The notes beneath the pieces are model-generated. The model saw nothing but the letters and a program-made list of their open reading frames with translations, did not search any database and was not told the origin of the DNA. Both the position numbers and the translations under genes were made by a program. A DNA stretch of 64,000 nucleotides from Candidatus Latescibacterota bacterium (lineage in GTDB: Bacteria; Latescibacterota; UBA2968): the NCBI GenBank assembly GCA_965204375.1, contig OZ241986.1, forward strand, positions 3,584,001 through 3,648,000. The letters are read 5' to 3'. This document shows, piece by piece, positions 6,296-49,997 of the stretch (the first letter of the stretch is position 1; every line of letters starts with the position of its first letter).

Positions 6296-7482
6296 TGCGC
6301 CAACACCCGGCGATAGATGTCAATCCAATTTTCAGTTTCTTGAGCCAGAGAAAATTGATTTGCTACTTTCTTTTTTCCTGCCCTACCAATCCTCTTTCGG
6401 AGTTCCATATCCTCAAGTAATAGTTGCAATTTTTGCGATAACATATCGGCGTCATCCGTAGGAACAAGCAGGCCATTCTTATTATCTTCAACTATATCAA
6501 CAATACCACCGACTTGAGAAGCCACAATGGGTAGTTCACAGGCCATCGCTTCTATGAGTGCATTTGGCGACCCTTCATGAAGCGAAGATAAGGCAAAAAT
6601 ATCCATCTCTTTCATCCACGCCATCACCTCCCGATGTGGAATATAACCCGTAAATACAACTTGCCGTTTGAGTCCCGAGTCACTGATTTGCTTCAACATA
6701 TCTCTTTTGTAGGATTCTTGTATAAACTTACCAACAACAAGCAAGCAAGTATCGGGATAAACTTTTACTACCCTCTCAAATGCCTGTAAGAGAATGTGAA
6801 ACCCCTTTACGGGCCGCAAAAGTCCAGCTGTCCCAATGACTGCTCCCCCTTGTGATTTCATCCGTAAAAAGGTTTCAGTAAGTATTTGCAGTCTATCGTT
6901 GTGCTCTCTTGTTATTTCTAAAAGTGCGCGTGCATCAAATATCGATGCATCAAACACATTGAGCATGACTTTTCCCTCTTTGACCCTTACCATTTGATGA
7001 ATTTTTTGCATGAGTTCAGATGATACCGACGTTACATAATCTGCTCGTTCTAATACCCACCTTAGATTTGCTGCGTGTTGGATGCTATATCGCAAAACTT
7101 CCCAATCGCTACCTCTGACACTAACAATGAAGGGGCGCTCAATTTCAGTAGCCACAATTGCACCTAAAAATCCAGGGGGCATGAGAAAAGCGGCATGAAC
7201 TAAATCAAAGTTTTGTTCTTTATGAAGGTTAAAAATATAGTCACCAAGCACTTGTAAACTATACGGATCAGCGTGGTATTTTGATAATATCGAAAATGTT
7301 CGATGTACTGTCACGTCATCTTCTATGACAGGTGATATCTTATCTCTTAATTGATAGGGACCTGGCGCGATAATATGGATATTAACACCCTGTTTTGCCA
7401 GATTTTTAGCAATCCTATAAATTGCACTTCCCACTCCTCCAGGATAAGGGGGATATTGGTACGAAATCAGACAGATATTCAT
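6292..7482 (-). CDS. Glycosyltransferase family 4 (GT-B)
   Basis: YPPYPGG N-terminus, KGFHILL, EGSPNALIEAMACELPIVAS motif. Confidence 0.92.
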   Translation of the reverse strand: MNICLISYQYPPYPGGVGSAIYRIAKNLAKQGVNIHIIAPGPYQLRDKISPVIEDDVTVHRTFSILSKYHADPYSLQVLGDYIFNLHKEQNFDLVHAAFLMPPGFLGAIVATEIERPFIVSVRGSDWEVLRYSIQHAANLRWVLERADYVTSVSSELMQKIHQMVRVKEGKVMLNVFDASIFDARALLEITREHNDRLQILTETFLRMKSQGGAVIGTAGLLRPVKGFHILLQAFERVVKVYPDTCLLVVGKFIQESYKRDMLKQISDSGLKRQVVFTGYIPHREVMAWMKEMDIFALSSLHEGSPNALIEAMACELPIVASQVGGIVDIVEDNKNGLLVPTDDADMLSQKLQLLLEDMELRKRIGRAGKKKVANQFSLAQETENWIDIYRRVLAQ

Positions 7483-7497
7483 ATTTACCTCATGATG

Positions 7498-8295
7498 TCA
7501 CGAATTGGGTTTTCGCGCTGTAATTTCTCCGAATAGAAGGGATAGATATTTGAAGGGATAATAATGATGTTTACCAAATTCGGTCAAAGCAGGTTGACCA
7601 TTGATCTTGGTAATCATATATCGGGAAGACTGGCTGGCGGTGAAACCAATTAACTTGCAAGAGCGAATTTCTTCAAAACCGGCACTATATATAGCACTTA
7701 TATGTTCTTCAAGAGTAGGTGTTTTATATGCAAAGATTCTATTAAACTCCGCCATCTCTCGTTTTTCTTCACTCGATGCTCCCTCTTTATCCAAGAAATA
7801 GACATCCTTGATATATAGCTTCCCCCTTGGACGCAGTACCCGGAAAACTTCCTCAAAAAGACGTTGGCGATCATAAGCATAGCCCGCAGATTCAAAAAAA
7901 AATACGACATCAAAGGATGAATCAAAAAATGGAAGGTCATGATAATCGCCTCTATAGACTTGAATTCTCGAGGATAGTCTCGCTTGCTGAATCAGTCTCT
8001 TAGCTATTTTTGCCTGAACTTCGGAAAGCGTAATCGCATCAATGTGAACGCCCTGAGTGTTCAAAGCAATGTCAATACTTGGTCCGCAGACACCACAACC
8101 ACAGTCTAAAATTCGGTGACCTGATTGAATGCCAGCACGAGAGGCCAGATATAGGTTGGTCGTTTTGGCTGTATTTCTTCGGGAATGTGACAATTGAATT
8201 GCCTGAAGGCTTGTACCCACATATTTCAAATAAACTTCAGTCATTGTGTCGTAATAATCGCATACTTTTTCAATGTATGCTTTGTGATCTTCCAT
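7498..8295 (-). CDS. Class I SAM-dependent methyltransferase
   Basis: ILDCGCGVCGP motif I, GDYHDLPF, FDVV, VLRPRGKL. Confidence 0.9.
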   Translation of the reverse strand: MEDHKAYIEKVCDYYDTMTEVYLKYVGTSLQAIQLSHSRRNTAKTTNLYLASRAGIQSGHRILDCGCGVCGPSIDIALNTQGVHIDAITLSEVQAKIAKRLIQQARLSSRIQVYRGDYHDLPFFDSSFDVVFFFESAGYAYDRQRLFEEVFRVLRPRGKLYIKDVYFLDKEGASSEEKREMAEFNRIFAYKTPTLEEHISAIYSAGFEEIRSCKLIGFTASQSSRYMITKINGQPALTEFGKHHYYPFKYLSLLFGEITARKPNS

Positions 8296-8296
8296 A

Positions 8297-9547
8297 TCAC
8301 ATCATCATCCTTGTTAATCGCTTCGCAATTCGGTATATAGCAAGGCCGAACATCAGAATGATCAGAGAGGGAAAGAAAAAGTCCGACAATGCACTCCCAA
8401 TATTTCGCCAATTCCCCACTGCAAAACTGTTTATTATCTCGCTAAAAGTCTTATACACTAAGCCAGGATAGTTTGTAACTAGATCGGGAAACAAAAAGAA
8501 AATCTTGTAAAAAAACAGAAAGAAGAAACTGGTGCTAACGATTCCATACAGCAAAAGAAACGATTTCATTTTACCACTGATGTGCAAAAAGACAGGTTCA
8601 GCGACCCCTTTTTGTTTTAAGACGAAACGTTTCGCAAAGTATTTCAGAATTTCTAAAGACCTTTTTCTGAGATTGGGTACGCCTATTATATCGGAAAAAA
8701 GCCAATACCCATCAAAGCGGAAAATTGGATTCAAGTTAAACAGTGCTGAACCGTAGTTAAGGAGAATCGCGTACAAAAATATGCTACTTGATGTCATTAG
8801 ATACAAAATGAAGAGTATGGGAACAAAAATAAGCTGAAAATATATGCCACCAAAGTCCACCATCGCACGTTGAGTTCTCGGCAGTCTCCAAGCATCCGTT
8901 ACATCAGCATAGAGAACGGGAAATCTAAAATATAATCCTATTCCTATCTCTCCAGGAAACACACCATAATAGGCACAGGCAGAAGAATGACCTAATTCAT
9001 GAAAGATCGCTAAAATACCAAAAATTATTAGCCCAAAGATAGCTTCTTGAAACGAAATATCATAAATAACAATATCTATGACTTGAAAAACAAAAAAATA
9101 AAAGTATAAAAAGAAGACGAAAGAGAAGAAAATAAAGAAGATCAGAATTCTTGGATTATAGAGAATTTTTAAAATATGACTAATGGACTGAACTACATTC
9201 TCCCGAATAATGGGATATTGAAAATACAAATATGAACTACTTTTTTGAATACTGTCATCTGAGTTTGTGTTTTCAAGGATGCCATAGGGCACAAGAAATG
9301 AATGGATAATTGCATCAATGTCTTTGGTAGAATAAGTCTTGTTTCTGACAGTAGAGTATTCGTTTGCAATTTCAGACAGTGTTTTTTTTCCATCTATCAA
9401 CTCTAAGATCTGATAGATACCTTCGCTTATTTCAAACCGTTTCGTACCTATACATAAAACATAACTCTCCTTAGCCAAAGAAGTATCGAATTTATACATC
9501 GAAACTTTAGGAACCAACTTAATCGGGTCTGGTAGGGACTCTTGCAT
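8297..9547 (-). CDS. Membrane zinc metallopeptidase (M50/site-2 type) with N-terminal PqqD/RRE-like domain
   Basis: N-terminal ILELIDGKKTLSEI (RRE-like helix-turn); FHELGH, NLNPIFRFDGYW, PNLR; multiple TM segments; resembles YydH-type RiPP peptidases. Confidence 0.85.
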   Translation of the reverse strand: MQESLPDPIKLVPKVSMYKFDTSLAKESYVLCIGTKRFEISEGIYQILELIDGKKTLSEIANEYSTVRNKTYSTKDIDAIIHSFLVPYGILENTNSDDSIQKSSSYLYFQYPIIRENVVQSISHILKILYNPRILIFFIFFSFVFFLYFYFFVFQVIDIVIYDISFQEAIFGLIIFGILAIFHELGHSSACAYYGVFPGEIGIGLYFRFPVLYADVTDAWRLPRTQRAMVDFGGIYFQLIFVPILFILYLMTSSSIFLYAILLNYGSALFNLNPIFRFDGYWLFSDIIGVPNLRKRSLEILKYFAKRFVLKQKGVAEPVFLHISGKMKSFLLLYGIVSTSFFFLFFYKIFFLFPDLVTNYPGLVYKTFSEIINSFAVGNWRNIGSALSDFFFPSLIILMFGLAIYRIAKRLTRMMM

Positions 9548-41281: not shown

Positions 41282-41515
41282 TCAGATTGGTTCAACACGC
41301 TCGTGCCCAATCACCTTTCGGGCATACAGGAGACAGGCCTGAATATCTTTCTGTGTCAGCCAAGGATAGCCTTCAAGCAGCACCTCGGGGGTATCTCCTG
41401 CTGCGAGCATGCCAAGGACCTGTTCAACGGCAAGTCGACGTCCTCGAACAATAGGCTTACCCCCAAAGATCTTCGGGTTGATCGTAATTCGTTCCAAGAG
41501 TTTTTTCTCATCCAT
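41282..41515 (-). CDS. DUF433 family protein (antitoxin-like), orphan
   Basis: RITINPKIFGGKPIVRGRR...YPWLTQKDIQACLLYA. Confidence 0.88.
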   Translation of the reverse strand: MDEKKLLERITINPKIFGGKPIVRGRRLAVEQVLGMLAAGDTPEVLLEGYPWLTQKDIQACLLYARKVIGHERVEPI

Positions 41516-41578
41516 TATTCATTTTTCCTCTGTCGTGACGAAATTACTTGAGATGGCAATGATGGCGAAATTTTCGTT

Positions 41579-42481
41579 TTAGTGATCTGAAGCATCTGTA
41601 TTGTTTGGACGATTAGATTGCGCAATAAGACGAAGAATCGGTTTTTTATCCAGTTCATCTTCGGATGAAATTTTCTTCCAATTGCTTTGGACTTCTGCCG
41701 TATCCAGAATTTTAGTCTCCAGAAGATTGGTAATAAGTGCTCCTGTTATCTGATCTTCAAATCCCTTGATTTCGGCCAACGGTACTTCTCCAAAATAAAG
41801 ATCGCATTCTACAAGAAGTGTTACTTTTAACTCTATTTCGAGGAAATCGTTATCTGCTTTGATAAATGCTACCGGTGGTGAAAGGGGAATATCTTTGTGG
41901 ATTCCTGGATCAGTTGGAAATTTCCTTTGTCTCCATAGATCATACACATAGTCTAAAGTAGTTCCTAGTTTCTGTTTCTGATTATCATATAGCACGATCT
42001 TTCCGGGATCTTGTAGAGGCATCCTCATCGTTCCTTGACCGGCAAAGGTCGATAAAAACTGCATGTTTCTAAAATCGGCCAATGCGGGAATGGCAACATA
42101 AGATTGCCAGTCGTGTTTCTCTGAATCTACCAATCGATACAATTCGATATTGGCCTCTGCTGCTCGTTTCTTTGCTGAAGCGCTAAAGCCACTTGCAGAA
42201 ATGATGGCTCCTCGGGTTGCTCGGATATCTTTAAATAGCCCCATAGAGGCTTCAATTGTTTTGATATCAGCAGGTTTTTTGTAGTCTTTGCAGTCAATTG
42301 CGAACAGGGTTTCAAATTGCCCAACTGTTTTTTTTATAACGATATCAATTTCCCTAAGCTGACCAGATTTTACGCCTCGTATCTTGGCATTCTGTTCTAC
42401 TTCGCAATCAGGTGATAGGGTCTTTTGGATTTGGCTACAAACGGATTCAAATCTACGCCATTTTTCAGATTTTTTTGCCAT
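41579..42481 (-). CDS. Mrr-type (restriction endonuclease type IV-like) domain protein
   Basis: FE...REIDIVI...IDCKDY...GAIISASGFSASAK; ~170-aa uncharacterised C-terminal region. Confidence 0.78.
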   Translation of the reverse strand: MAKKSEKWRRFESVCSQIQKTLSPDCEVEQNAKIRGVKSGQLREIDIVIKKTVGQFETLFAIDCKDYKKPADIKTIEASMGLFKDIRATRGAIISASGFSASAKKRAAEANIELYRLVDSEKHDWQSYVAIPALADFRNMQFLSTFAGQGTMRMPLQDPGKIVLYDNQKQKLGTTLDYVYDLWRQRKFPTDPGIHKDIPLSPPVAFIKADNDFLEIELKVTLLVECDLYFGEVPLAEIKGFEDQITGALITNLLETKILDTAEVQSNWKKISSEDELDKKPILRLIAQSNRPNNTDASDH

Positions 42482-42585
42482 ATCAAGTCCATTTCTATAG
42501 AGACTGAATGAGAGCGTAATCTATACTGTGGTCAGAGGATAGCGATGTTGGTGTTACTTGAATACAGTAAGAGGCACTTTAAAAT

Positions 42586-43713
42586 TCATGAAAACTTAGC
42601 AAGAAACTCCTTCACTTGCTGTTCTTCCCAATCAACATAGCCAATCGGATTATTCCAGAATTTTATCCAAGCCATATTAAGTAATGAATGAATTGGATCT
42701 TTGGTTTCGGGACGGGCAATCCTAGTTCCCATTGCTCCAATCCCTTCAAAAGCCAGAATTGTGATTTTGTCCAGTAGTTCATCTGGATAGCAAATTTGGT
42801 ACTCTGGTTGTGGTTTAAATCCTGTGTGCATAGTGAGACATTTCCAAGTATCATCAATCTGTTGGCCTTCTGAAGCAAACCCGAGGTTATCCAATGCCTT
42901 CAAAATTACTGACATCCTGGCGGAATCCGCAGGATGGGATTCGATGCTTAAATCGAAAGGGTTTCCACCCGCCTTGAAAACTGAATGAAGGAATGTCCAA
43001 GCGTAAGCCGGTCCCAGCGTATATGTGCCAAAAAGGTCGCAGAATAATTCTTCTGCCCAAGACTTGGCCCAATAGTTGCGCCATTTTTCCAAAAAAAAAG
43101 ATAGATACACTGGGCCCTTCCTTCTATCCTCACGTAAAGCTCTATTGTTGATATACTCGTGAATATTTCCAAGTGCCTCAGCCAATTTTTGCTGTAATGG
43201 TTCGATGATTTTGTCATTTTGCGATATAAACAATCTATGTGTGAGTTCGTGGTATAGACAAGGAAGGTGTAGAAGAAAATGCCCTTCAACCAATGGGACG
43301 CATAATAGGTTCAATCCCGTTATTATATAAAAAAAATCTTTTGATAACGTAGATACAACAGGACAACTTCCTTTATATTGGATCTCTCTGCAGATTTCAA
43401 AAAGTAGCTTGTTAAGTCGGTGGTCATCGTCGGCTGCTTTGTTTAGTGCAGCTATTCCTGTTGCCTCTATGCTGTTTAGGTCATCCACACATCTTTGAAA
43501 TCTACGAATGCGTACAGGCTGAATTCGTGGGTCTTTCATTCGCTGGTCATCTCTTAAATGCCGCAACATATCTATGCAATGATCAATAACACTTTCACAA
43601 TTTTGTGTCAGAATTTGATAGTCACGCGGCAGACCCCTAGGGATTTTTCCCTTCAATATCTTCGCTCGTTGCTCCAATTGCGCAATCGTTCCCGCCAGAT
43701 ACTCCTCAATCAT
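42586..43713 (-). CDS. HExxH zinc metallopeptidase-like protein (M48-like motifs)
   Basis: LYHELTH, downstream EELFCD, SHP-x-x-x-x-R; start overlaps upstream stop (TAATG). Confidence 0.68.
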   Translation of the reverse strand: MIEEYLAGTIAQLEQRAKILKGKIPRGLPRDYQILTQNCESVIDHCIDMLRHLRDDQRMKDPRIQPVRIRRFQRCVDDLNSIEATGIAALNKAADDDHRLNKLLFEICREIQYKGSCPVVSTLSKDFFYIITGLNLLCVPLVEGHFLLHLPCLYHELTHRLFISQNDKIIEPLQQKLAEALGNIHEYINNRALREDRRKGPVYLSFFLEKWRNYWAKSWAEELFCDLFGTYTLGPAYAWTFLHSVFKAGGNPFDLSIESHPADSARMSVILKALDNLGFASEGQQIDDTWKCLTMHTGFKPQPEYQICYPDELLDKITILAFEGIGAMGTRIARPETKDPIHSLLNMAWIKFWNNPIGYVDWEEQQVKEFLAKFS

Positions 43714-44081
43714 TAATTACCTCTCATCCTGGCGTATGCACTAGATCGCTCTTGTTCCACTGCTTGGGCCAAGGTCTCAAGTTGATCAAATTGGTCTTGG
43801 TTGATCTTATTGTTTAGTAATCGTTCGCCTAGGTCTTGCCACTTTGATTGCCATTTTGTTTGAGTTAGACCTGACTTCTCCTGTAAAATTGCAGATAACA
43901 CTTGTGCTGAGAGATCAAGTTTTTTTCTTTCTCCAATAGATTTCAAAACACAACCAAGTTCTTTGACTTTCTCATCCTGATCTATATTACCCGTACTTAG
44001 AGTTACAATAACCTCATCAACAAGCTGTGCAAATTTCCTCATTCTCTCATACATTCCTGAGTGTAATCCTGTATTACTCAT
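43713..44081 (-). CDS. Hypothetical 122-aa alpha-helical protein
   Basis: SD GGAGG; 11 bp after the pAgo stop; coupled to the next gene. Confidence 0.75.
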   Translation of the reverse strand: MSNTGLHSGMYERMRKFAQLVDEVIVTLSTGNIDQDEKVKELGCVLKSIGERKKLDLSAQVLSAILQEKSGLTQTKWQSKWQDLGERLLNNKINQDQFDQLETLAQAVEQERSSAYARMRGN

Positions 44082-44092
44082 TTTCCATCCTC

Positions 44093-46456
44093 CTAAATAT
44101 CCAGTGAAAAATCAATTGCTTCTTCGTCATACTCGCTGGCATCTTCACCCAGCCGACGATCTGTTAGTTTGATTGTAATCGGGTCCCGTGTGCAGTCTTC
44201 AGGCCGAGTCCAAGTGAGAGCAGTAAGATAATATACATCCCTTAAGCAGTCTTCAAACGGCATATCTCCGTCAACATATCTGATATGCAACGGTCTTGTT
44301 GTACCTGGATGGAAAAATGCTTTTCCAGTCGTACATAAGTACGCATCTCTATCATCAATGATGTGGTAGCAGCCAACTTGAGGATTTTTAACTTCAAAAT
44401 CATCCCACTTTTTCGTAACATCAAAAAATCTGATGGGGACCGGAGATGTCTTTGAAATTTCCAAAAATGTTACTGTTGAGGATTTGGGTAGGGTACCCTT
44501 TTCCTTAAGCAGGATCAATGCTTCTTGGATACCGTCGATTTCAGATTGAAACAATCTTCCATCTCGATGAATAACAATCCGCTCAATAGGCTTGTCCGCT
44601 ACTTCGGCTTCCTTACTTATTAGTTTGAATAAGAAGGTTTTGACCTGCGGTTTTCCCAGCTTTTCCCTATGTCTGGAGCGTGATACTTCCGTCCTAATCC
44701 TTGCTCCCATGTTTCCGACGAGAGTGAAACCCGCCGTACTATGTTTTGCGTCGATTCCAATGGTCAAATCTGCTTCGAGTGGTGTAGCTAAGACAAATGG
44801 CCAATTTTCATTAGTTAGAAGAATTTTATTGAGTACTACACCGCGGATATAGCCTCTCAATTTGCCAGCCTTCTTAGGATTTGGTTCATACACATCAATA
44901 CCATTCTTTGATATAAGATCATAACATTCTTGGCCTACGGCAGAGTGATTGACAGCGACCCGCAAATCGTAATCGCGTTCCAAGCGATTTATTATCATCG
45001 CACCTAATTGATCGTGTTCGCGGAATTTTTGATCCCTAGTGTGATGTAACATCACGAGCATATGTCCGCTCAGTTGTCCTTCTTCTTCGATCGCAGTAAG
45101 TATAGATTTGCCTTGTGCGACGAATGTTCTTGGTCCACCATCGGGATAGGTGATGATCTTTGGTGCGTAGGGTGGCAAGACTTGATTATCCGATTTACCA
45201 AGACAATCAGCCACACAATTCTGAATATCTGTGGTATATTTTTCTCCCCAACTTTTTTCTACGGATTCTGGTAGGACAAGATACTGTTGTCCAAGGGGAG
45301 CCTTGTCATAGAATCCAACTGATTGATCAGCTAATAGATCTAATCGAACACGTCCAATATTATCAAGGCTGACTTGCTGAGCTTGTGGTGTTCCACTCAC
45401 AGATACAATGTGACCTTCACCAAACTCATAATCGGGAATTTGAAACATTGCTTGCGGGATAGTGATCTGTGTCGAAGACAATCTGACAGGAACATCACCG
45501 AATTTCAAGCTTGATAGGTATTTTGCTGTAAATTTGTGAATCTTTGATCGTCTGACTTTCGGATGTGGCACAACCAGTTTGTGGTTATGTCGAACTGCAG
45601 AATGTCTGTTATCTAAAATCGCATAACATAGTCCGGTCGGAACTGCCCTGGGTTCGCCTTTATTGGTTCTATATATTGCAACAGATGAATCGTGCAGGAG
45701 GTTAGTAACCTCCTTTGGCAAAGGTTGTGGCGCATGTTTAAGGATATATTCTCTGAGATTATAATTTTTCCCGTCCTTTACAATTGGATACGTAGAAATA
45801 TCGAGATCGTGTAACTCATCTAATTTTACATCATACCAGCTACGTCCAAAATGGTAAACAAACCGGCTACCAGCATATTTCCGGAATTTGTCTCTTGACA
45901 GGTGCAATGGAAGTGAAGTGTTACTGACGAATTTTCCTCTAAAATCGACACACAAACCTATACCGCCATTTGGTGTTACAATTGCCCTAAATGCAAATCC
46001 CTGAAAAAAATCAATGTCTCCGATACGGCGAGTTGGGTTTCTTTCATAAAAAGGAGTACCACTGCCCAATTGCCATAGGGCCCTATTTTTCCAAACTTCA
46101 CTTTGCAAAGCAAAATTGAGGAACCGGAGACAGATATCATCATTGTTCACAGATCTTTCTGTAAAATCTATTGGTAATACACCTACTTTTTCAAATATCA
46201 CAACAGTACGAACGAGGTCGTAGGGAGATGGGGGTTCAGGACCACGTTCGGATAACACAAGATGGGGAATACCTTCAATTTCAATAATTATTGCGGAAGT
46301 TCGCAATTGAAAGCTGATCTGCCTGACAATCTGTGCCTTATTTTGAAAGTATTCGTCTTGATTTCTATCTAAATTTAGAATCTTATACAAACGATATCGA
46401 GCAGAAAACTCTGCTATGTTTTCAATGTTAAAGATGTTTGTTTCAAGGCCTTTCAT
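44093..46456 (-). CDS. ago: Long prokaryotic Argonaute (N-PAZ-MID-PIWI), predicted catalytic DEDD tetrad
   Basis: 787 aa; PIWI motifs LTIGIDAK (D), REKL (E), IVIHRDGR (D), FLEISK, GTTRPL, PITIKLTDRR (D); overlaps the upstream gene by 14 bp. Confidence 0.9.
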   Translation of the reverse strand: MKGLETNIFNIENIAEFSARYRLYKILNLDRNQDEYFQNKAQIVRQISFQLRTSAIIIEIEGIPHLVLSERGPEPPSPYDLVRTVVIFEKVGVLPIDFTERSVNNDDICLRFLNFALQSEVWKNRALWQLGSGTPFYERNPTRRIGDIDFFQGFAFRAIVTPNGGIGLCVDFRGKFVSNTSLPLHLSRDKFRKYAGSRFVYHFGRSWYDVKLDELHDLDISTYPIVKDGKNYNLREYILKHAPQPLPKEVTNLLHDSSVAIYRTNKGEPRAVPTGLCYAILDNRHSAVRHNHKLVVPHPKVRRSKIHKFTAKYLSSLKFGDVPVRLSSTQITIPQAMFQIPDYEFGEGHIVSVSGTPQAQQVSLDNIGRVRLDLLADQSVGFYDKAPLGQQYLVLPESVEKSWGEKYTTDIQNCVADCLGKSDNQVLPPYAPKIITYPDGGPRTFVAQGKSILTAIEEEGQLSGHMLVMLHHTRDQKFREHDQLGAMIINRLERDYDLRVAVNHSAVGQECYDLISKNGIDVYEPNPKKAGKLRGYIRGVVLNKILLTNENWPFVLATPLEADLTIGIDAKHSTAGFTLVGNMGARIRTEVSRSRHREKLGKPQVKTFLFKLISKEAEVADKPIERIVIHRDGRLFQSEIDGIQEALILLKEKGTLPKSSTVTFLEISKTSPVPIRFFDVTKKWDDFEVKNPQVGCYHIIDDRDAYLCTTGKAFFHPGTTRPLHIRYVDGDMPFEDCLRDVYYLTALTWTRPEDCTRDPITIKLTDRRLGEDASEYDEEAIDFSLDI

Positions 46457-47378
46457 AGTTATCCTCCCAACATATCATTTTAAATTTGCACCTTTGACAA
46501 TTACCAGGGTAGATAGTGACGTCAAAATCTTCAGGTTTGAGATCCGAAGGCTTGTTATTATCGACCGCGGAGACCATATCATTAATACTTTTCCCGATAT
46601 AATCTTCTAACTTGTGAATATCTTCTTCTGTGAGTTGATACTCTCTCAGAGTGTTTGTCAGTAATTGCACTTCTGCTAGTTCGATATCGGTTTCAGCCCA
46701 CCTATCAAGAGAGGGAAAATATGAGTGAGGTTTGCATCTTTTGAGTGCTAGAGCATAGACTCCCAACTGCAACCAAGCTTCTTGTAGGGCAAATGTATGC
46801 ACTTTCCAATCGACAATTAGCGGGGCACGATTATTGTAGAAGGCCAGTACGTCAGGAATAGCTCGAACTGTATTCTCGAAGAAAGGGAACTGTAGAATCC
46901 TCTGTGCAAATAGTCCGTCTGCTTGAGCTAACTTTTGTAGCAGGACTTCCTGACTATATAGATTCTCAATGGCCTGCAAGACTTCAATTCTGGCTTTATC
47001 TAATTGATCTGTTGGGATTGAACCATCATAGACTATCGCTTGAAATGCCACAAAATCTGGATCTTTGAGGTTAGTAGTAGGAGAAAGTAGATCATTTTCC
47101 AACCCAAATTTTAACTGTTTTTCGAGTTGATGTACCGCTTCGTTTTGTAGTTGATCCTTTGAAGGCACACGCTTATATCTTAGCCCTTTAAGTAGGGATT
47201 CTGATAAGACTTCATCAACTATTAACCCTCTCCAAGCACTGACCGAAACTAATTTTGACAAGCGATAAGCTAAATGCCGGTCAGGAGACTTAGCTCTTGC
47301 ATTTGCAAATGTCTTCTGAAAGAACCATTTTCTTGGACAACCTCGGAAATTATAGTTGTCCGAAACTGACCATATCAT
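46443..47378 (-). CDS. Cas4-like / RecB-family PD-(D/E)XK nuclease with 4-Cys Fe-S motif
   Basis: N-terminal WS-x-S...CPRKW; IPDV...IVDWK; QLGVY; C-terminal CQRC-x5-C. Confidence 0.85.
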   Translation of the reverse strand: MIWSVSDNYNFRGCPRKWFFQKTFANARAKSPDRHLAYRLSKLVSVSAWRGLIVDEVLSESLLKGLRYKRVPSKDQLQNEAVHQLEKQLKFGLENDLLSPTTNLKDPDFVAFQAIVYDGSIPTDQLDKARIEVLQAIENLYSQEVLLQKLAQADGLFAQRILQFPFFENTVRAIPDVLAFYNNRAPLIVDWKVHTFALQEAWLQLGVYALALKRCKPHSYFPSLDRWAETDIELAEVQLLTNTLREYQLTEEDIHKLEDYIGKSINDMVSAVDNNKPSDLKPEDFDVTIYPGNCQRCKFKMICWEDNYERP

Positions 47379-47731
47379 TATTCCTTCCTCCGATTTTTTT
47401 TTAATCGTAAAAAGTCCAAATACTCAATCAGCGCTTCCTGTTCTTCTTCACTTGTTGCTCCGAGTCTTGCAACGAATGCTGTTTCCTTATTTTGTTCTTG
47501 ATGATCGGGCATTGGGTATCCTGCCATTGTCATTATCGAAGCATATGGCACCTGATACAATTCGCTCAACTTAAACAGAATTTTGGGAGAAGGAGTACGG
47601 ATTTTGCCACTTTCTAATTGGCTAAGGTAAGCATTGGAAATTTCGGTTTCTTTTTCAACTGCTCTGAGAGTGTAGTTTTTCGATTGTCTCATAGACTTCA
47701 GGTGTGCTCCGAGTTCGTTTAAGTCAGGCAT
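47378..47731 (-). CDS. XRE-family HTH transcriptional regulator
   Basis: LKSMR...TLRAVE...ISNAYLSQLESG...PS; ATG after AGGAG; stop overlaps the next start (TAATG). Confidence 0.9.
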   Translation of the reverse strand: MPDLNELGAHLKSMRQSKNYTLRAVEKETEISNAYLSQLESGKIRTPSPKILFKLSELYQVPYASIMTMAGYPMPDHQEQNKETAFVARLGATSEEEQEALIEYLDFLRLKKNRRKE

Positions 47732-47770
47732 GTTTTCTCTCCTGCTGATCGTTTGATTCAACAATTCTTT

Positions 47771-47807
47771 TGCTAATTATATCAAGCATTGCTAAATTTG
47801 TCAAGCA
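47771..47807 (-). promoter_or_regulatory. Consensus sigma70 promoter overlapped by two operator repeats
   Basis: Minus strand TTGACA (47799-47804) -17- TATAAT (47776-47781); repeats tgctaattatatcaagca (47771-47788) and tgctaaatttgtcaagca (47790-47807), each TGCT-N10-AGCA. Confidence 0.82.
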
Positions 47808-48097
47808 TTTCAGATAAAAAATTTTCGATTCCTAAAATCATTTAAACTCTAACTTCATATTTTACATACTATTTGACTGAGGTATATTAGTTGGAAAAAA
47901 GGATACTGTTGCGAGAATTTTGAGTCTTGATGCCTTTTTGTTTGACATTCGACTTCGGTTCATATACATTTCAAATCCAATGGGGACTTGGTTTCCTGCT
48001 CTCCGGGAAAATTAGAGGATACATCTCCGGATTTTGTAGAAATGGTCTTAAAAAAAGCATTCCAGAAATAGACTAAAGACAATAAGTTAAATTGGGT

Positions 48098-48174
48098 GGG
48101 CGATTAGCTCAGGTGGTTAGAGTGCTTGCTTGACATGCAAGAGGTCACTGGTTCAAGTCCAGTATCGCCCACCA
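48098..48174 (+). tRNA. tRNA-Val (GAC)
   Basis: Acceptor gggcgat/atcgccc, D-arm tagctcaggtggttagag, anticodon arm cttgc-ttGACat-gcaag, T-loop gttcaagtc, encoded CCA. Confidence 0.96.
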
Positions 48175-48182
48175 TTAAAAAC

Positions 48183-48216
48183 AATGGGTTACGCAAATTG
48201 ATGCGTAACCCATTTT
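48183..48216 (+). terminator. Hairpin downstream of tRNA
   Basis: aatgggttacgca-aattga-tgcgtaacccatt followed by T-rich sequence. Confidence 0.65.
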
Positions 48217-48260
48217 CCTTTGATGCCCATCTGGATGCAGTCTTTCAAGGAATTCTGAAC

Positions 48261-48896
48261 ATGAAACGAATCGGTATTCTGGCCTACGGCTCTCTAATAG
48301 ACAATCCGGGTCCAGAACTGGGACCGAACACGGTTGCAAAAATCAAAGGTGTCAATACGCCATTCAGGGTTGAATTCGCCCGGAAGAGCCGAAGCCGCAA
48401 TTATGCACCCACTTTAGTTCCGGTTGCTGAGAGTGGTGCTTCCGTTAAAGGCGTTATACTCATATTGAGAGACGGCATATCTGAAACAGAAGCTAAAAAT
48501 ATGCTCTGGCGCCGGGAAGTGAACCGTTTTGACACTCGGAAAATTTACCAACCCTATGCAAACCCCGGTGACAATAAGGTGTATGTGGAAGCGCTGGAAC
48601 ATTTCAAGGGTATCGATGTGGTTTATTACGTCCGAATTGCCTCTAATATCCAACCCTTGACACCAGCACGCCTGGCAAAGCTGGCTATTCAAAGCGTCAG
48701 CTTAAAAAAGAAAAACCAGGGGCGAGATGGCATTAGCTACCTGAACAATGCAAAAGCAAACGGTATTCAAACGCCCCTCATGTCCGCATACGAACTGGAG
48801 ATTCTACAGCGGATGAACGCAAAAAATCTCGCAGAAGCCTTGTCCTCGCAAATCAACCTGTTGAAAGAAAATGCTGGATCATCTCACGCTCCGTAG
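48261..48896 (+). CDS. Gamma-glutamylcyclotransferase (ChaC-like) fold hypothetical protein
   Basis: MKRIGILAYGSL, APTLVP, L-x-R-R-E, GISYL. Confidence 0.6.
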   Translation: MKRIGILAYGSLIDNPGPELGPNTVAKIKGVNTPFRVEFARKSRSRNYAPTLVPVAESGASVKGVILILRDGISETEAKNMLWRREVNRFDTRKIYQPYANPGDNKVYVEALEHFKGIDVVYYVRIASNIQPLTPARLAKLAIQSVSLKKKNQGRDGISYLNNAKANGIQTPLMSAYELEILQRMNAKNLAEALSSQINLLKENAGSSHAP

Positions 48897-48897
48897 G

Positions 48898-49716
48898 TTA
48901 ATCCCCTTCAGAAAGTATTTCAGCAATTTTATCCAGATATGCTTTCAGGGACAAACCGTGACTTCTTGCCAGAATCCCCAGCGTATCCACTTTTGTCCGT
49001 TCTCCCTTTTCGATTCTGCGCACATGGCGTTCCGAAAGGCCCTGAATATCGGCTTGCTTAAGCCCACACTGTTTTCGAAATGCGGCAACAGCCTCTCCGA
49101 ACCGAATGTCAGACATCAATCTTTCCCGATCCTTTTGCTCCCGCCACATATCATCTTTCAGGTAGCGAACAGCATCCAGGTCGATGTGTACATCAGCCTC
49201 AGGCCAGTGAATATAACTGCCTTCGCTGGAGATGGTAAATGAAGAACGCTGTTTTTCTGGTATGCTCTCGAATGCGAGCATTTCATCAAACCCAACTCTG
49301 AACAAGGTATGATCACAGGCCACGACAAAAAGCTCATCATCAATAACCTGTGCAGTGGCAATTAGCTGATCCGGACATCCAAGACTCCAGGCCGTAAGCA
49401 CGCGCTTTGGCACATCCTTATCTGAATGCACAAGAATGTTTCGGGTCATTCTCAGTTTAGCTGCATAAAGCATCTGCGGTAAAAACTGAGCATTGTGGTC
49501 TTCCCGGACAAAAAGGGTTCGAAGATGGTTTCGGTGATTGGCAGCACGCACAAATTCAGTAACAACAGGCAGATCGGGAACAGAAGTGAGCACAAAAATA
49601 TCCCGAGAATTTATCCTTCCCAAGTCTGGCTTCCGAAAAACCCTGAAAGAACGCGGAATGATGTCATCGCTGAATGGGTCTTGAGCCCAGACGGTCATAT
49701 TAGCAGTCTTTGACAT
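48898..49716 (-). CDS. DUF2442 + XRE-HTH antitoxin-like protein
   Basis: GSYIHWPEADVHID (DUF2442) followed by LKQADI...HVRRIEKG HTH; start 2 bp after the partner's stop. Confidence 0.75.
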   Translation of the reverse strand: MSKTANMTVWAQDPFSDDIIPRSFRVFRKPDLGRINSRDIFVLTSVPDLPVVTEFVRAANHRNHLRTLFVREDHNAQFLPQMLYAAKLRMTRNILVHSDKDVPKRVLTAWSLGCPDQLIATAQVIDDELFVVACDHTLFRVGFDEMLAFESIPEKQRSSFTISSEGSYIHWPEADVHIDLDAVRYLKDDMWREQKDRERLMSDIRFGEAVAAFRKQCGLKQADIQGLSERHVRRIEKGERTKVDTLGILARSHGLSLKAYLDKIAEILSEGD

Positions 49717-49718
49717 AC

Positions 49719-49997
49719 TTAGCTCCTTGTATCCACTTTGGCTTCCCACTCGGCATAAAGCGCGTCTCGATATTGAAGCACCAGATTTAAAAGCTCCCGG
49801 CACTCTTTGCCCGAAGGACCCGATCCAGAGGGAGGAAACTTCACATTGAAAACCAAATTGCTGCGTTTACACGCACGAAAAAAGACGCGGATCTCCCATT
49901 TGTCTGGTTTGCGGGCGTGAAAATGAGGCGGTTCGTGATCCGAGGAATTGAACCATAGGTCCACACCCGCCATATGAAAACAATCCAATTTGCCCAA
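49719..49997 (-). CDS. DUF4160 family toxin-like protein
   Basis: DHEPPHFH motif; C-terminal L-x-x-E-W-E; TTG after AAGGAG. Confidence 0.78.
   Translation of the reverse strand: MGKLDCFHMAGVDLWFNSSDHEPPHFHARKPDKWEIRVFFRACKRSNLVFNVKFPPSGSGPSGKECRELLNLVLQYRDALYAEWEAKVDTRS

Follow-up and report, generated by a model that had tools for sequence, protein, structure and literature searches.

What do the last two genes of an operon for a prokaryotic Argonaute (pAgo) do, one for a small helical protein and the other for an HExxH protein, and do they belong to it at all? The question is raised by 64,000 nucleotides of a Candidatus Latescibacterota bacterium (assembly GCA_965204375.1, contig OZ241986.1, positions 3,584,001 to 3,648,000 of the forward strand; the window, below, means this whole stretch), in which five minus-strand genes and their promoter fill positions 42586 to 47807. 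We find here a complete PliAgo-type Argonaute cassette that was acquired horizontally. It is strongly supported as encoding an XRE/CapH-like repressor, a Cas4-like Fe-S nuclease, a catalytically intact long pAgo and a translationally coupled small/HExxH pair, and the five genes are likewise well supported as a single operon, its consensus promoter overlaid by a conserved two-site dyad operator. We are about evenly divided on the reading preferred here, namely that this is an autorepressed RNA-targeting pAgo cassette that also carries a latent protease with its inhibitor, as a self-contained, effector- or toxin-like second arm. The features are as follows.

47771-47807, minus strand: promoter with bipartite operator
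47378-47731, minus strand: XRE/CapH-like helix-turn-helix (HTH) regulator, 117 amino acids (aa), from the ATG at 47731
46443-47378, minus strand: Cas4-like PD-(D/E)XK nuclease with a four-Cys cluster, 311 aa
44093-46456, minus strand: long pAgo of the PliAgo group, 787 aa
43713-44081, minus strand: small protein, predicted to have five helices, 122 aa
42586-43713, minus strand: HExxH protein, cytosolic, with a predicted zincin-like core, 375 aa

Do these genes form a unit? A first-pass annotation, made from the letters of the window, had described five same-strand genes joined by three overlaps (1, 14 and 1 bp) and a gap of 11 bp, a perfect sigma70 promoter and an AT-rich block next to a tRNA-Val gene, and each of these observations holds. 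By open reading frame (ORF) coordinates and by the junction letters as read, the XRE and nuclease genes overlap by 1 bp, the nuclease and pAgo genes by 14 bp, and the 122-aa and HExxH genes by 1 bp; the 11-bp gap lies between the pAgo gene and the 122-aa gene. The longest XRE ORF spans 47378-47764 and begins with a TTG at 47764; we read the ATG at 47731 as the true start because AGGAG lies just upstream of it. The GC fraction is 0.37-0.43 across ~41500-48000 and 0.48-0.57 to either side, and the cassette sits on the 5' side of tRNA-Val(GAC), which is at 48098-48174 on the plus strand. The same gene order was found in 160 related loci from many phyla, so the arrangement is far from chance.

Are the last two genes genuine members of the cassette? 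Two scans bear on this. The first, with an HExxH alignment, was anchored on the HExxH gene in genomes and took the best 80 of 159 relatives, from many phyla; the second, with a pAgo alignment, was anchored on pAgo in metagenomes and took the best 80 of 212 relatives. In the 80 genome loci, tblastn with the window proteins found pAgo in 73/80, XRE in 73/80, the nuclease in 67/80 and the small protein in 59/80, and the members found in this way always stood in the window's order. The small protein diverges fast in sequence; an ORF of 110-130 aa that ends at the HExxH start is present in 76/80 of these loci, and the other four have a tblastn match (L048), a longer ORF (L056) or truncated sequence (L055 and L078; L, G and P numbers are our own handles for loci, genomes and proteins). 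The stop of the small gene overlaps the HExxH start in 62/76 loci, 48 of them by 4 or 1 bp, and because the genes overlap so often, co-translation of the two proteins fits. Seen from the other end, the pAgo-anchored metagenome loci with at least 1600 nt downstream have an adjacent HExxH gene in 55/55 cases, and those with room upstream have the nuclease in 64/64 and XRE in 62/64. Co-occurrence of the 122-aa and HExxH genes with pAgo homologues, a point on which the first-pass annotation had wanted a neighbourhood check, is thereby borne out from both anchors, and the small protein and the HExxH protein are essentially always present as genuine, obligate partners of this pAgo.

Plasmids extend the same picture. 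The Runella slithyformis conjugative plasmid pRUNSL03, the host replicon of RslAgo, has the same five-gene order; RefSeq gives it as an HTH regulator, a PD-(D/E)XK nuclease and hypothetical proteins of 801, 125 and 378 aa, the last being the HExxH homologue. Directly downstream of the pRUNSL03 cassette (L172, 7450-9629) is an operon for a multiubiquitin-domain protein, a ThiF adenylyltransferase and a DUF6527 protein; two defence-type cassettes stand side by side there. A cyanobacterial plasmid has a nuclease, a pAgo, a 145-aa gene and an HExxH gene. The Emticicia plasmid pEMTOL01 carries, in an operon of a sigma-70 type that has no XRE gene, a sigma-70 factor, a 180-aa gene, a nuclease (PDLC02410), a pAgo (PDLC02383, 715 bits), a 128-aa gene and a relative of the HExxH gene; by hhalign the HExxH relative matches the window type at 99.8% and the small protein at 28% (E 6e-4). 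This operon came to light through the plasmid match; a search of 301 Bacteroidota genomes with PDLC02383 had returned 3 matches, each of them PliAgo-like in score. According to the 2022 paper on PliAgo (PMC9360449), the sister PnyAgo group carries a sigma-70 factor. The pair is kept in XRE-type and sigma-70-type operons alike, so it is core to both D-R pAgo groups, with an exchangeable transcription factor. The 180-aa gene of pEMTOL01 (L174, 1371-1913) shares 4 bp with the end of the sigma-70 gene and stands where an anti-sigma factor would be encoded; its product gave no family match, and the idea that it is a relative of XRE, from an HTH-like stretch seen by eye, was rejected (hhalign 1.2%).

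Can the pair do without the Argonaute? Five of the 80 genome loci suggest that it can. Two (L008, L052) have only XRE, the small protein and the HExxH protein, two (L053, L080) have XRE, a 109-aa N-terminal fragment of the nuclease, the small protein and the HExxH protein, and one (L047) has the small protein and the HExxH protein only. All five keep every catalytic motif, the operator is kept in the three that were checked for it (L008, L052 and L053), and the neighbours of the pAgo-less loci are other defence-type genes. A quick maximum-likelihood tree built from 81 HExxH proteins places the following pAgo-less rows next to relatives: L052 beside L026 and L042 (support 100), L047 beside L049 (97), L053 and L080 beside L038 and L043 (85), L008 beside the L023 group (87) and L055 beside L061 (86). 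Because pAgo-less rows are found beside pAgo-bearing rows, the tree points to repeated secondary loss of pAgo. The short form, with XRE, an ~80-110-aa nuclease N-terminal piece, the small protein and the HExxH protein, recurs in Gemmatimonadota metagenome-assembled genomes and in two genomes of the window's phylum (L053, L080, L185, L189), and either recurrent deletion or spread of the short form itself could account for it.

An unselected set of 168 genomes from the window's phylum gives a similar view. A full-length HExxH gene is present in 14 of them, next to an intact pAgo in 7, a split pAgo in 1 (G392), a pAgo remnant only in 3 (G015, G373, G446) and no pAgo in 3 (G019, G368, G442), and wherever pAgo is full or split, the genome has the HExxH gene too (8/8). 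In G392, which belongs to the window's genus, pAgo lies in two pieces ~1.3 kb apart (C1:125619-129312), as after an insertion, with the small and HExxH genes intact downstream. Among the 12 same-genus genomes sampled first, pAgo was in only 1, and such a patchy distribution is as expected of an accessory island. More distant, paralogous pairs exist as well. They consist of a 150-aa gene, whose protein starts MSTHWLDIQSF, and a 371-374-aa HExxH-like gene (hhalign 99.1%), at 6873-8450 (minus strand) in L186, 5782-7350 (plus strand) in L187 and ~7010-8500 (minus strand) in L188; two are next to a STAND NTPase or an Eco57I-like methylase, both without pAgo, and the third follows a distant nuclease-pAgo pair. 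Conversely, four Dehalococcoidia loci, all of one clade, lack the nuclease and keep pAgo, the small protein and the HExxH protein.

What kind of protein is the HExxH protein? The motif named in the first-pass annotation is there, as H155-E-L-T-H159, and its homologues are numerous: 228 in 90% clusters and 1541 representative clusters at E <= 1e-3 (726 at 1e-10, 326 at 1e-30), and in these cluster searches none had a name or a Pfam domain. E143, H155, E156, H159, E222, D226, H260 and R266 are invariant in 81/81 sequences, three plasmid ones included, and H155, E156, H159, E222, D226 and H260 are candidate metal or catalytic residues. In the AlphaFold model (pLDDT 92.6, pTM 0.90), an N-terminal part with three long helices leads to a three-strand sheet (119-140) and the HExxH helix (152-162); long helices at 171-196 and 202-233 follow, the second of which holds E222, and the C-terminal half is helical. 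The modelled order of elements, with the sheet first, then the HExxH helix and then the Glu helix, is zincin-like. Some homologues (P0097, P0121 and P0134) are fused at the C-terminus to a caspase-like CHAT domain, which was also the only result, in one fusion, when 22 members were compared with Pfam at E <= 10. A similarly long HExxH ORF, of 609 aa, occurs inside an otherwise normal pAgo operon (L016, 10001-11830).

Several candidate families were considered for this protein and set aside. ESM-Atlas look-alikes were clusters of Peptidase_U49, M48 and M13-like proteins, with scores of only 0.76-0.88. The leads to Peptidase_U49 (Lit) and M48 (0.76-0.78) were rejected, as no Pfam match at E <= 10 was found in the 22 members, and hhalign against two PF10463 proteins gave 1.9% and 0.5% for Peptidase_U49. 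Membership of M78/COG2856 (CapP/ImmA/IrrE) was rejected as well: there was no Pfam or PADLOC match, the C-terminal half is all-helical, and the gene lies four genes from XRE. The HExxH profile gave only chance matches against PDB sequences, and the alignment found no relative among viral contigs.

It is therefore reasonable to ask whether the protein is a protease at all. It could instead be a scaffold or some other metal-dependent enzyme, which together with the small protein would aid guide loading or processing, or would mature or stabilise pAgo or the nuclease. The long helical bundles that make up about two thirds of the model, the failure to match any peptidase family or fold, and the fact that pAgo was never found without the HExxH gene in the metagenome loci with room for it would all suit such a role. 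It is nevertheless very unlikely, given the strict invariance of HExxH, E222, D226 and H260 across all 81 sequences, the zincin-like order of elements in the model, and the persistence of the pair in genomes that lack pAgo or the nuclease. The zinc protease proposed in the first-pass annotation has thus kept its motif and its invariant residues and has gained no family, and the proteolytic second arm built on it remains plausible as a reading from motif and model.

What, then, is the small protein? It has no match in Pfam, NCBIfam, PADLOC or PHROGs. Its model is a five-helix bundle (pLDDT 86), for which Foldseek returned only designed helical bundles and FliS-like chaperones (E > 0.1). Its most conserved part is the N-terminus, M-S-D-x-G-L-x-S-x-x-Y, in which S2 and Y11 are each kept in 72/76 small proteins. 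This N-terminus is also the part that a predicted complex places in the active site of the HExxH protein. The complex scored 0.72 (runs 0.70, 0.72 and 0.81) against 0.01 for the best control, on a scale whose mark is reached by 58/80 solved complexes and 2/110 mismatched pairs, and the runs have at least 88% of contacts in common, with a partner pLDDT of at least 77. In the predicted geometry, small-protein residues 1-10 contact HExxH-protein residues 124, 126-133 (an edge strand), 152, H155, E156, H159, 221-E222 and 259-H260, and small-protein helices 12-30 and 98-120 pack on helix 58-84 of the HExxH protein, in its N-terminal coiled coil. The small-protein N-terminus is thus predicted to plug the HExxH cleft, as a pseudo-substrate inhibitor or as a bound substrate would. 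Blocking of zincins by an N-terminus is known from serralysin inhibitors and from TIMPs.

Which nucleic acid would the Argonaute act on? The first-pass annotation had proposed DNA interference as the first of two layers of defence. This is probably wrong, because the pAgo belongs to the PliAgo group, whose characterised members cut RNA. In a phmmer search of the PDB, residues 4-784 align with 5-782 of 7r8k/7r8f (E 1.3e-135), and its PDB matches are of the PliAgo type only; 7R8F-7R8K are structures of PliAgo from Pseudooceanicola lipolyticus (PMC9360449). It also matches the PADLOC model pAgo_II (PDLC02382) at 1.8e-274. As described in the same paper, PliAgo and RslAgo bind DNA guides in vitro and cleave RNA and not DNA, cutting between positions 9' and 10', and they have an unusual MID pocket. 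PliAgo has a catalytic tetrad of D563, E592, D626 and D762 plus K759; its MID domain lacks the (Y/H/R)KQK motif and contacts the 5'-phosphate through R467, H498, S501 and Y530, of which only the His and Tyr are absolutely conserved (PMC9360449). These residues were mapped onto the window pAgo by hand from the PDB alignment and then checked. The D-E-D-D residues of the PIWI domain, as first noticed in the window, are D569/E598/D632/D766, and they are invariant in 16/16 pAgos from related loci; K763 corresponds to K759. H504 and Y536 of the MID domain are present and are invariant in the same 16/16, and the positions of PliAgo A479, C483 and G542, where canonical pAgos have KQK, are G485, I489 and T548 in the window, all neutral. 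The positions of R467 and S501 differ (H472 and V507). By sequence, then, DNA-guided RNA cleavage is most likely the work of the nucleic-acid arm, rather than DNA interference.

The nuclease, too, is as first described, a PD-(D/E)XK protein with four Cys. Its motif is P175-D176 ... D190-W-K192, and C14 (N-terminal) and C294, C297 and C303 (C-terminal) make up the cluster. D176, D190, K192 and C14 are kept in 59/59 nucleases, C294 and C297 each in 58/59 and C303 in 57/59. It matches PADLOC Aga_Cas4-like_Nuc (PDLC02406) at 1.3e-102 and Pfam PDDEXK_1 at 4.4e-11, and no PDB chain was matched by sequence at E <= 0.01.

Might the Argonaute and the protease be coupled? It is conceivable that invader RNA, once bound or cut by guide-loaded pAgo, causes the plug to be released or cleaved, much as in Craspase or CalpL systems, and that the protease, once free, goes on to cut a protein that is essential or serves in signalling, with growth arrest or a transcriptional response as the outcome. 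Both D-R pAgo groups carry the pair beside pAgo, and CHAT fusions occur inside pAgo operons. The transcription factor is XRE or sigma, as in CalpL/CalpT/CalpS and Craspase/Csx30. RNA cleavage alone would be weak as a defence, and PMC9360449 describes what D-R pAgos naturally do as an open question. Target activation of this kind is unlikely all the same. Nothing points to contact of pAgo with either member of the pair (the complex prediction covered the small/HExxH pair only), and many genomes that lack pAgo keep the pair, whose activation cannot depend on pAgo there. A broader form of the idea, which we hold to be just as improbable, is that D-R pAgo systems are nuclease-protease machines in which RNA recognition frees an unclassified zincin to cut a host or signalling protein; they would be a counterpart of Craspase, built on a portable module of protease and inhibitor that would also act alone in defence, in the manner of a toxin-antitoxin pair.

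How is the cassette controlled? With a TG in front of its -10, the TTGACA-17-TATAAT promoter at 47804-47776 is the only 12/12 match among 23 promoter-like sites in a scan of 41400-48300, which bears out the perfect sigma70 promoter reported before. Each of its two boxes falls within one operator site.

47807-47790, minus strand: O1, TGCTTGACAAATTTAGCA, which holds the -35 (47804-47799)
47788-47771, minus strand: O2, TGCTTGATATAATTAGCA, which holds the -10 (47781-47776)

GCTTGAC was found upstream of the XRE gene in 59/67 genome loci, against ~1 expected from shuffles, and in 59/62 metagenome loci. Loci aligned on it have TGCTTGACA-N4-yhAGCA over the -35 and a second operator copy, TGCTTGATAnnnTTAGCA, over the -10; many have the perfect dyad TGCTTGA-N4-TCAAGCA, and Bacteroidota loci, Runella among them, have two copies of a variant, TTGCTTG-N-AGCAA. 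In many loci (e.g. L020, L023, L028 and L094) the XRE ATG is only 6-9 nt past the -10, which suggests that the mRNA is leaderless there; the window and some other loci have a 5' leader with a Shine-Dalgarno sequence instead. The XRE protein matches Pfam HTH_3 (3.5e-13), PADLOC HTH_VI (1.3e-13) and, over its full length (residues 16-124), PADLOC capH (6e-8), and 67 XRE sequences have a conserved HTH and a C-terminal segment, AR.G..T..EE..L..YL.FLR. Because a conserved operator covers the promoter, and the HTH and C-terminal segment of XRE are conserved, XRE is presumed to be an autorepressor that acts at the dyad operator of its own promoter.

Could XRE also be the substrate of the protease? 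In a regulatory switch of the CapH/CapP kind (also ImmR/ImmA and DdrO/IrrE), the HExxH protein would be an anti-repressor protease: a signal, such as single-stranded DNA (ssDNA) from the nuclease or from infection, would displace the 122-aa gate, XRE would be cut in its C-terminal segment, and the promoter would fire. The full-length capH match, the conserved C-terminal helix of XRE after an invariant-looking A-R, and the conservation of a strong, operator-controlled promoter all speak for such a switch. CapP is described as cutting CapH at F82/R83, in the C-terminal dimerisation helix, with stimulation by ssDNA (bioRxiv 10.1101/2022.04.27.489752), and as being gated by an active-site-blocking loop that is conceptually plug-like (bioRxiv 10.64898/2026.05.16.725639). 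On the other side, the HExxH protein has no detectable M78/CapP similarity and no GAF domain, and its gene does not lie beside that for XRE. The sigma-70-type operon, which has no XRE, keeps the pair all the same, and the distant pairs have no regulator nearby, so the protease does not travel with this repressor. A regulator with nothing to regulate would also not be expected to persist after the loss of pAgo. We regard the switch as possible, though on balance rather unlikely.

The same comparisons favour an effector- or toxin-like module rather than a mere regulator, for three reasons. First, the pair is constant while the regulator is XRE or sigma-70. Second, it survives repeated loss of pAgo and the nuclease. 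Third, it is sometimes fused to a CHAT protease. How would the preferred reading, of an RNA-targeting cassette with a latent protease as its second arm, then work? XRE would bind the operator and keep the operon off. The nuclease would probably make small DNA guides, and pAgo would use them to cut RNA, by homology to PliAgo and RslAgo. The HExxH protein would be a zinc-dependent protease, a zincin, held latent by the N-terminus of the 122-aa protein, which would cover the HExxH/E222/H260 site and run along the edge strand; the helices of the 122-aa protein would clamp the protease's N-terminal coiled coil.

Several points weigh against this reading. The HExxH protein, for which zinc-dependent proteolysis is deduced from the motif, from residue conservation and from secondary-structure order, has no match in Pfam, NCBIfam, PADLOC or PHROGs, and a Foldseek search with its model gave no match in the PDB (best E 0.3) or BFVD (best E 0.18). 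The complex was predicted from unpaired, self-built alignments and its score is only roughly calibrated, and the predicted geometry does not distinguish an inhibitor from a substrate. The full-length CapH likeness of XRE, with the conserved Arg that opens its C-terminal segment, fits cleavage of the repressor, and there is no link between pAgo activity and the protease among the results. The tree behind repeated pAgo loss is a quick version, not a careful search; several of the pAgo-less genomes share a genus, which means that independent losses are fewer than genomes; and persistence of the trio of XRE, small and HExxH genes could reflect recent deletions in related genomes.

The neighbourhood of the cassette adds a few observations. 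A minus-strand gene for a 300-aa Mrr_cat restriction-endonuclease-like protein (41579-42481; Pfam 1.2e-11) shares the low-GC block with the cassette and lies 104 bp downstream of its HExxH gene. A counterpart of this gene was found by tblastn in 0/160 related loci, so it is taken to be a separate island neighbour, outside the cassette. Across tRNA-Val is a ChaC-like ORF (48126-48896, plus strand), whose longest reading starts inside the tRNA-Val gene, which makes a later true start probable, and next to it is a gene for a 301-aa protein with DUF2442 and HTH_3 domains (48898-49803, minus strand).

What are the implications? First, in both D-R groups the pair of HExxH and small protein is no less obligatory than the nuclease, and research since the discovery of D-R pAgos has centred on pAgo by itself, as a tool. 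Should the pair prove to be a latent protease, in vivo work that clones pAgo with or without the nuclease misses half of the system. Second, the pair is a candidate for a new protease-inhibitor family, toxin-antitoxin-like, in defence islands. Third, an N-terminal plug in a zincin cleft is a concrete structural hypothesis that can be tested, and the new findings make the cellular role of D-R pAgos directly testable.

How does the cassette compare with what has been described? The first-pass annotation knew of no described pAgo system that has a dedicated zinc protease and a 122-aa partner as well. The architecture itself is in part already known. The HTH regulator, PD-(D/E)XK nuclease and pAgo were noted as one operon for the PliAgo group in 2022 (Lisitskaya et al., PMC9360449), and RslAgo comes from the same cassette; another paper states that no conserved operon could be constructed for any pAgo group (PMC6299218). 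The window resembles PliAgo-group operons in its full-length pAgo, its DEDD residues, its His/Tyr MID pocket without (Y/H/R)KQK and its upstream nuclease and HTH genes; nothing structural differs, and it is a new copy. The 2022 paper names only the nuclease and the regulator, and its text does not discuss the 122-aa and HExxH genes, the operator or the pAgo-less forms, although the genes may be drawn unlabelled in its Fig. 1b. In the text of PMC9360449 and in the passages searched of PMC12094033, PMC6299218, PMC2743648, PMC11162769 and PMC12642450, as distinct from figures and supplements, no peptidase or protease is mentioned with pAgo, a literature search gave no paper that ties a pAgo to a metalloprotease, and no described identity or role for the last two genes was found in these sources.

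Both pAgo_II and Aga_Cas4-like_Nuc, which make up Argonaute "Class II" in PADLOC, are matched by window proteins, and the same check found no model in PADLOC-DB 2.0 for the small or HExxH protein. APACE1 (a long-A pAgo with ACE1, PMC12094033) shares with the window a pAgo and a Cas4-family nuclease with D-DxK and 1+3 Cys, which is proposed to process guides. It differs in that its pAgos are cyanobacterial and carry out DNA-guided DNA interference, and the passages searched in that paper mention neither an XRE protein nor a peptidase. ACE1 averages 278 aa and ACE2 313 aa, the window nuclease has 311 aa, and APACE2 is given there as uncharacterised.

Two comparisons reach beyond Argonautes. Like CapH/CapP, ImmR/ImmA and DdrO/IrrE, the window places in one defence operon an HExxH protein and an XRE repressor with a C-terminal helix, and its XRE has the CapH-like features of HTH_3, a C-terminal segment and, as it appears, a dyad operator over its own promoter. 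Those pairs keep their active site gated until they receive a signal; in the window the gate would be a separate protein. The window also differs in having no M78/COG2856 or GAF similarity, in placing XRE and the HExxH protein at opposite ends of the operon, and in that its type of protease stays where a sigma factor replaces the repressor. Craspase (gRAMP, TPR-CHAT and Csx30) and CalpL/CalpT/CalpS combine an RNA-targeting guided nuclease, a protease, a small partner and a transcription factor. The likeness is one of analogy only: the window has another class of protease and no CRISPR, and pAgo-protease contact is not in evidence, whereas some HExxH members do carry a CHAT domain. The PliAgo-type operon with its HTH regulator and nuclease was thus already known, and what is new here is the proposed protease-plug module, the autonomy of that module and the operator.

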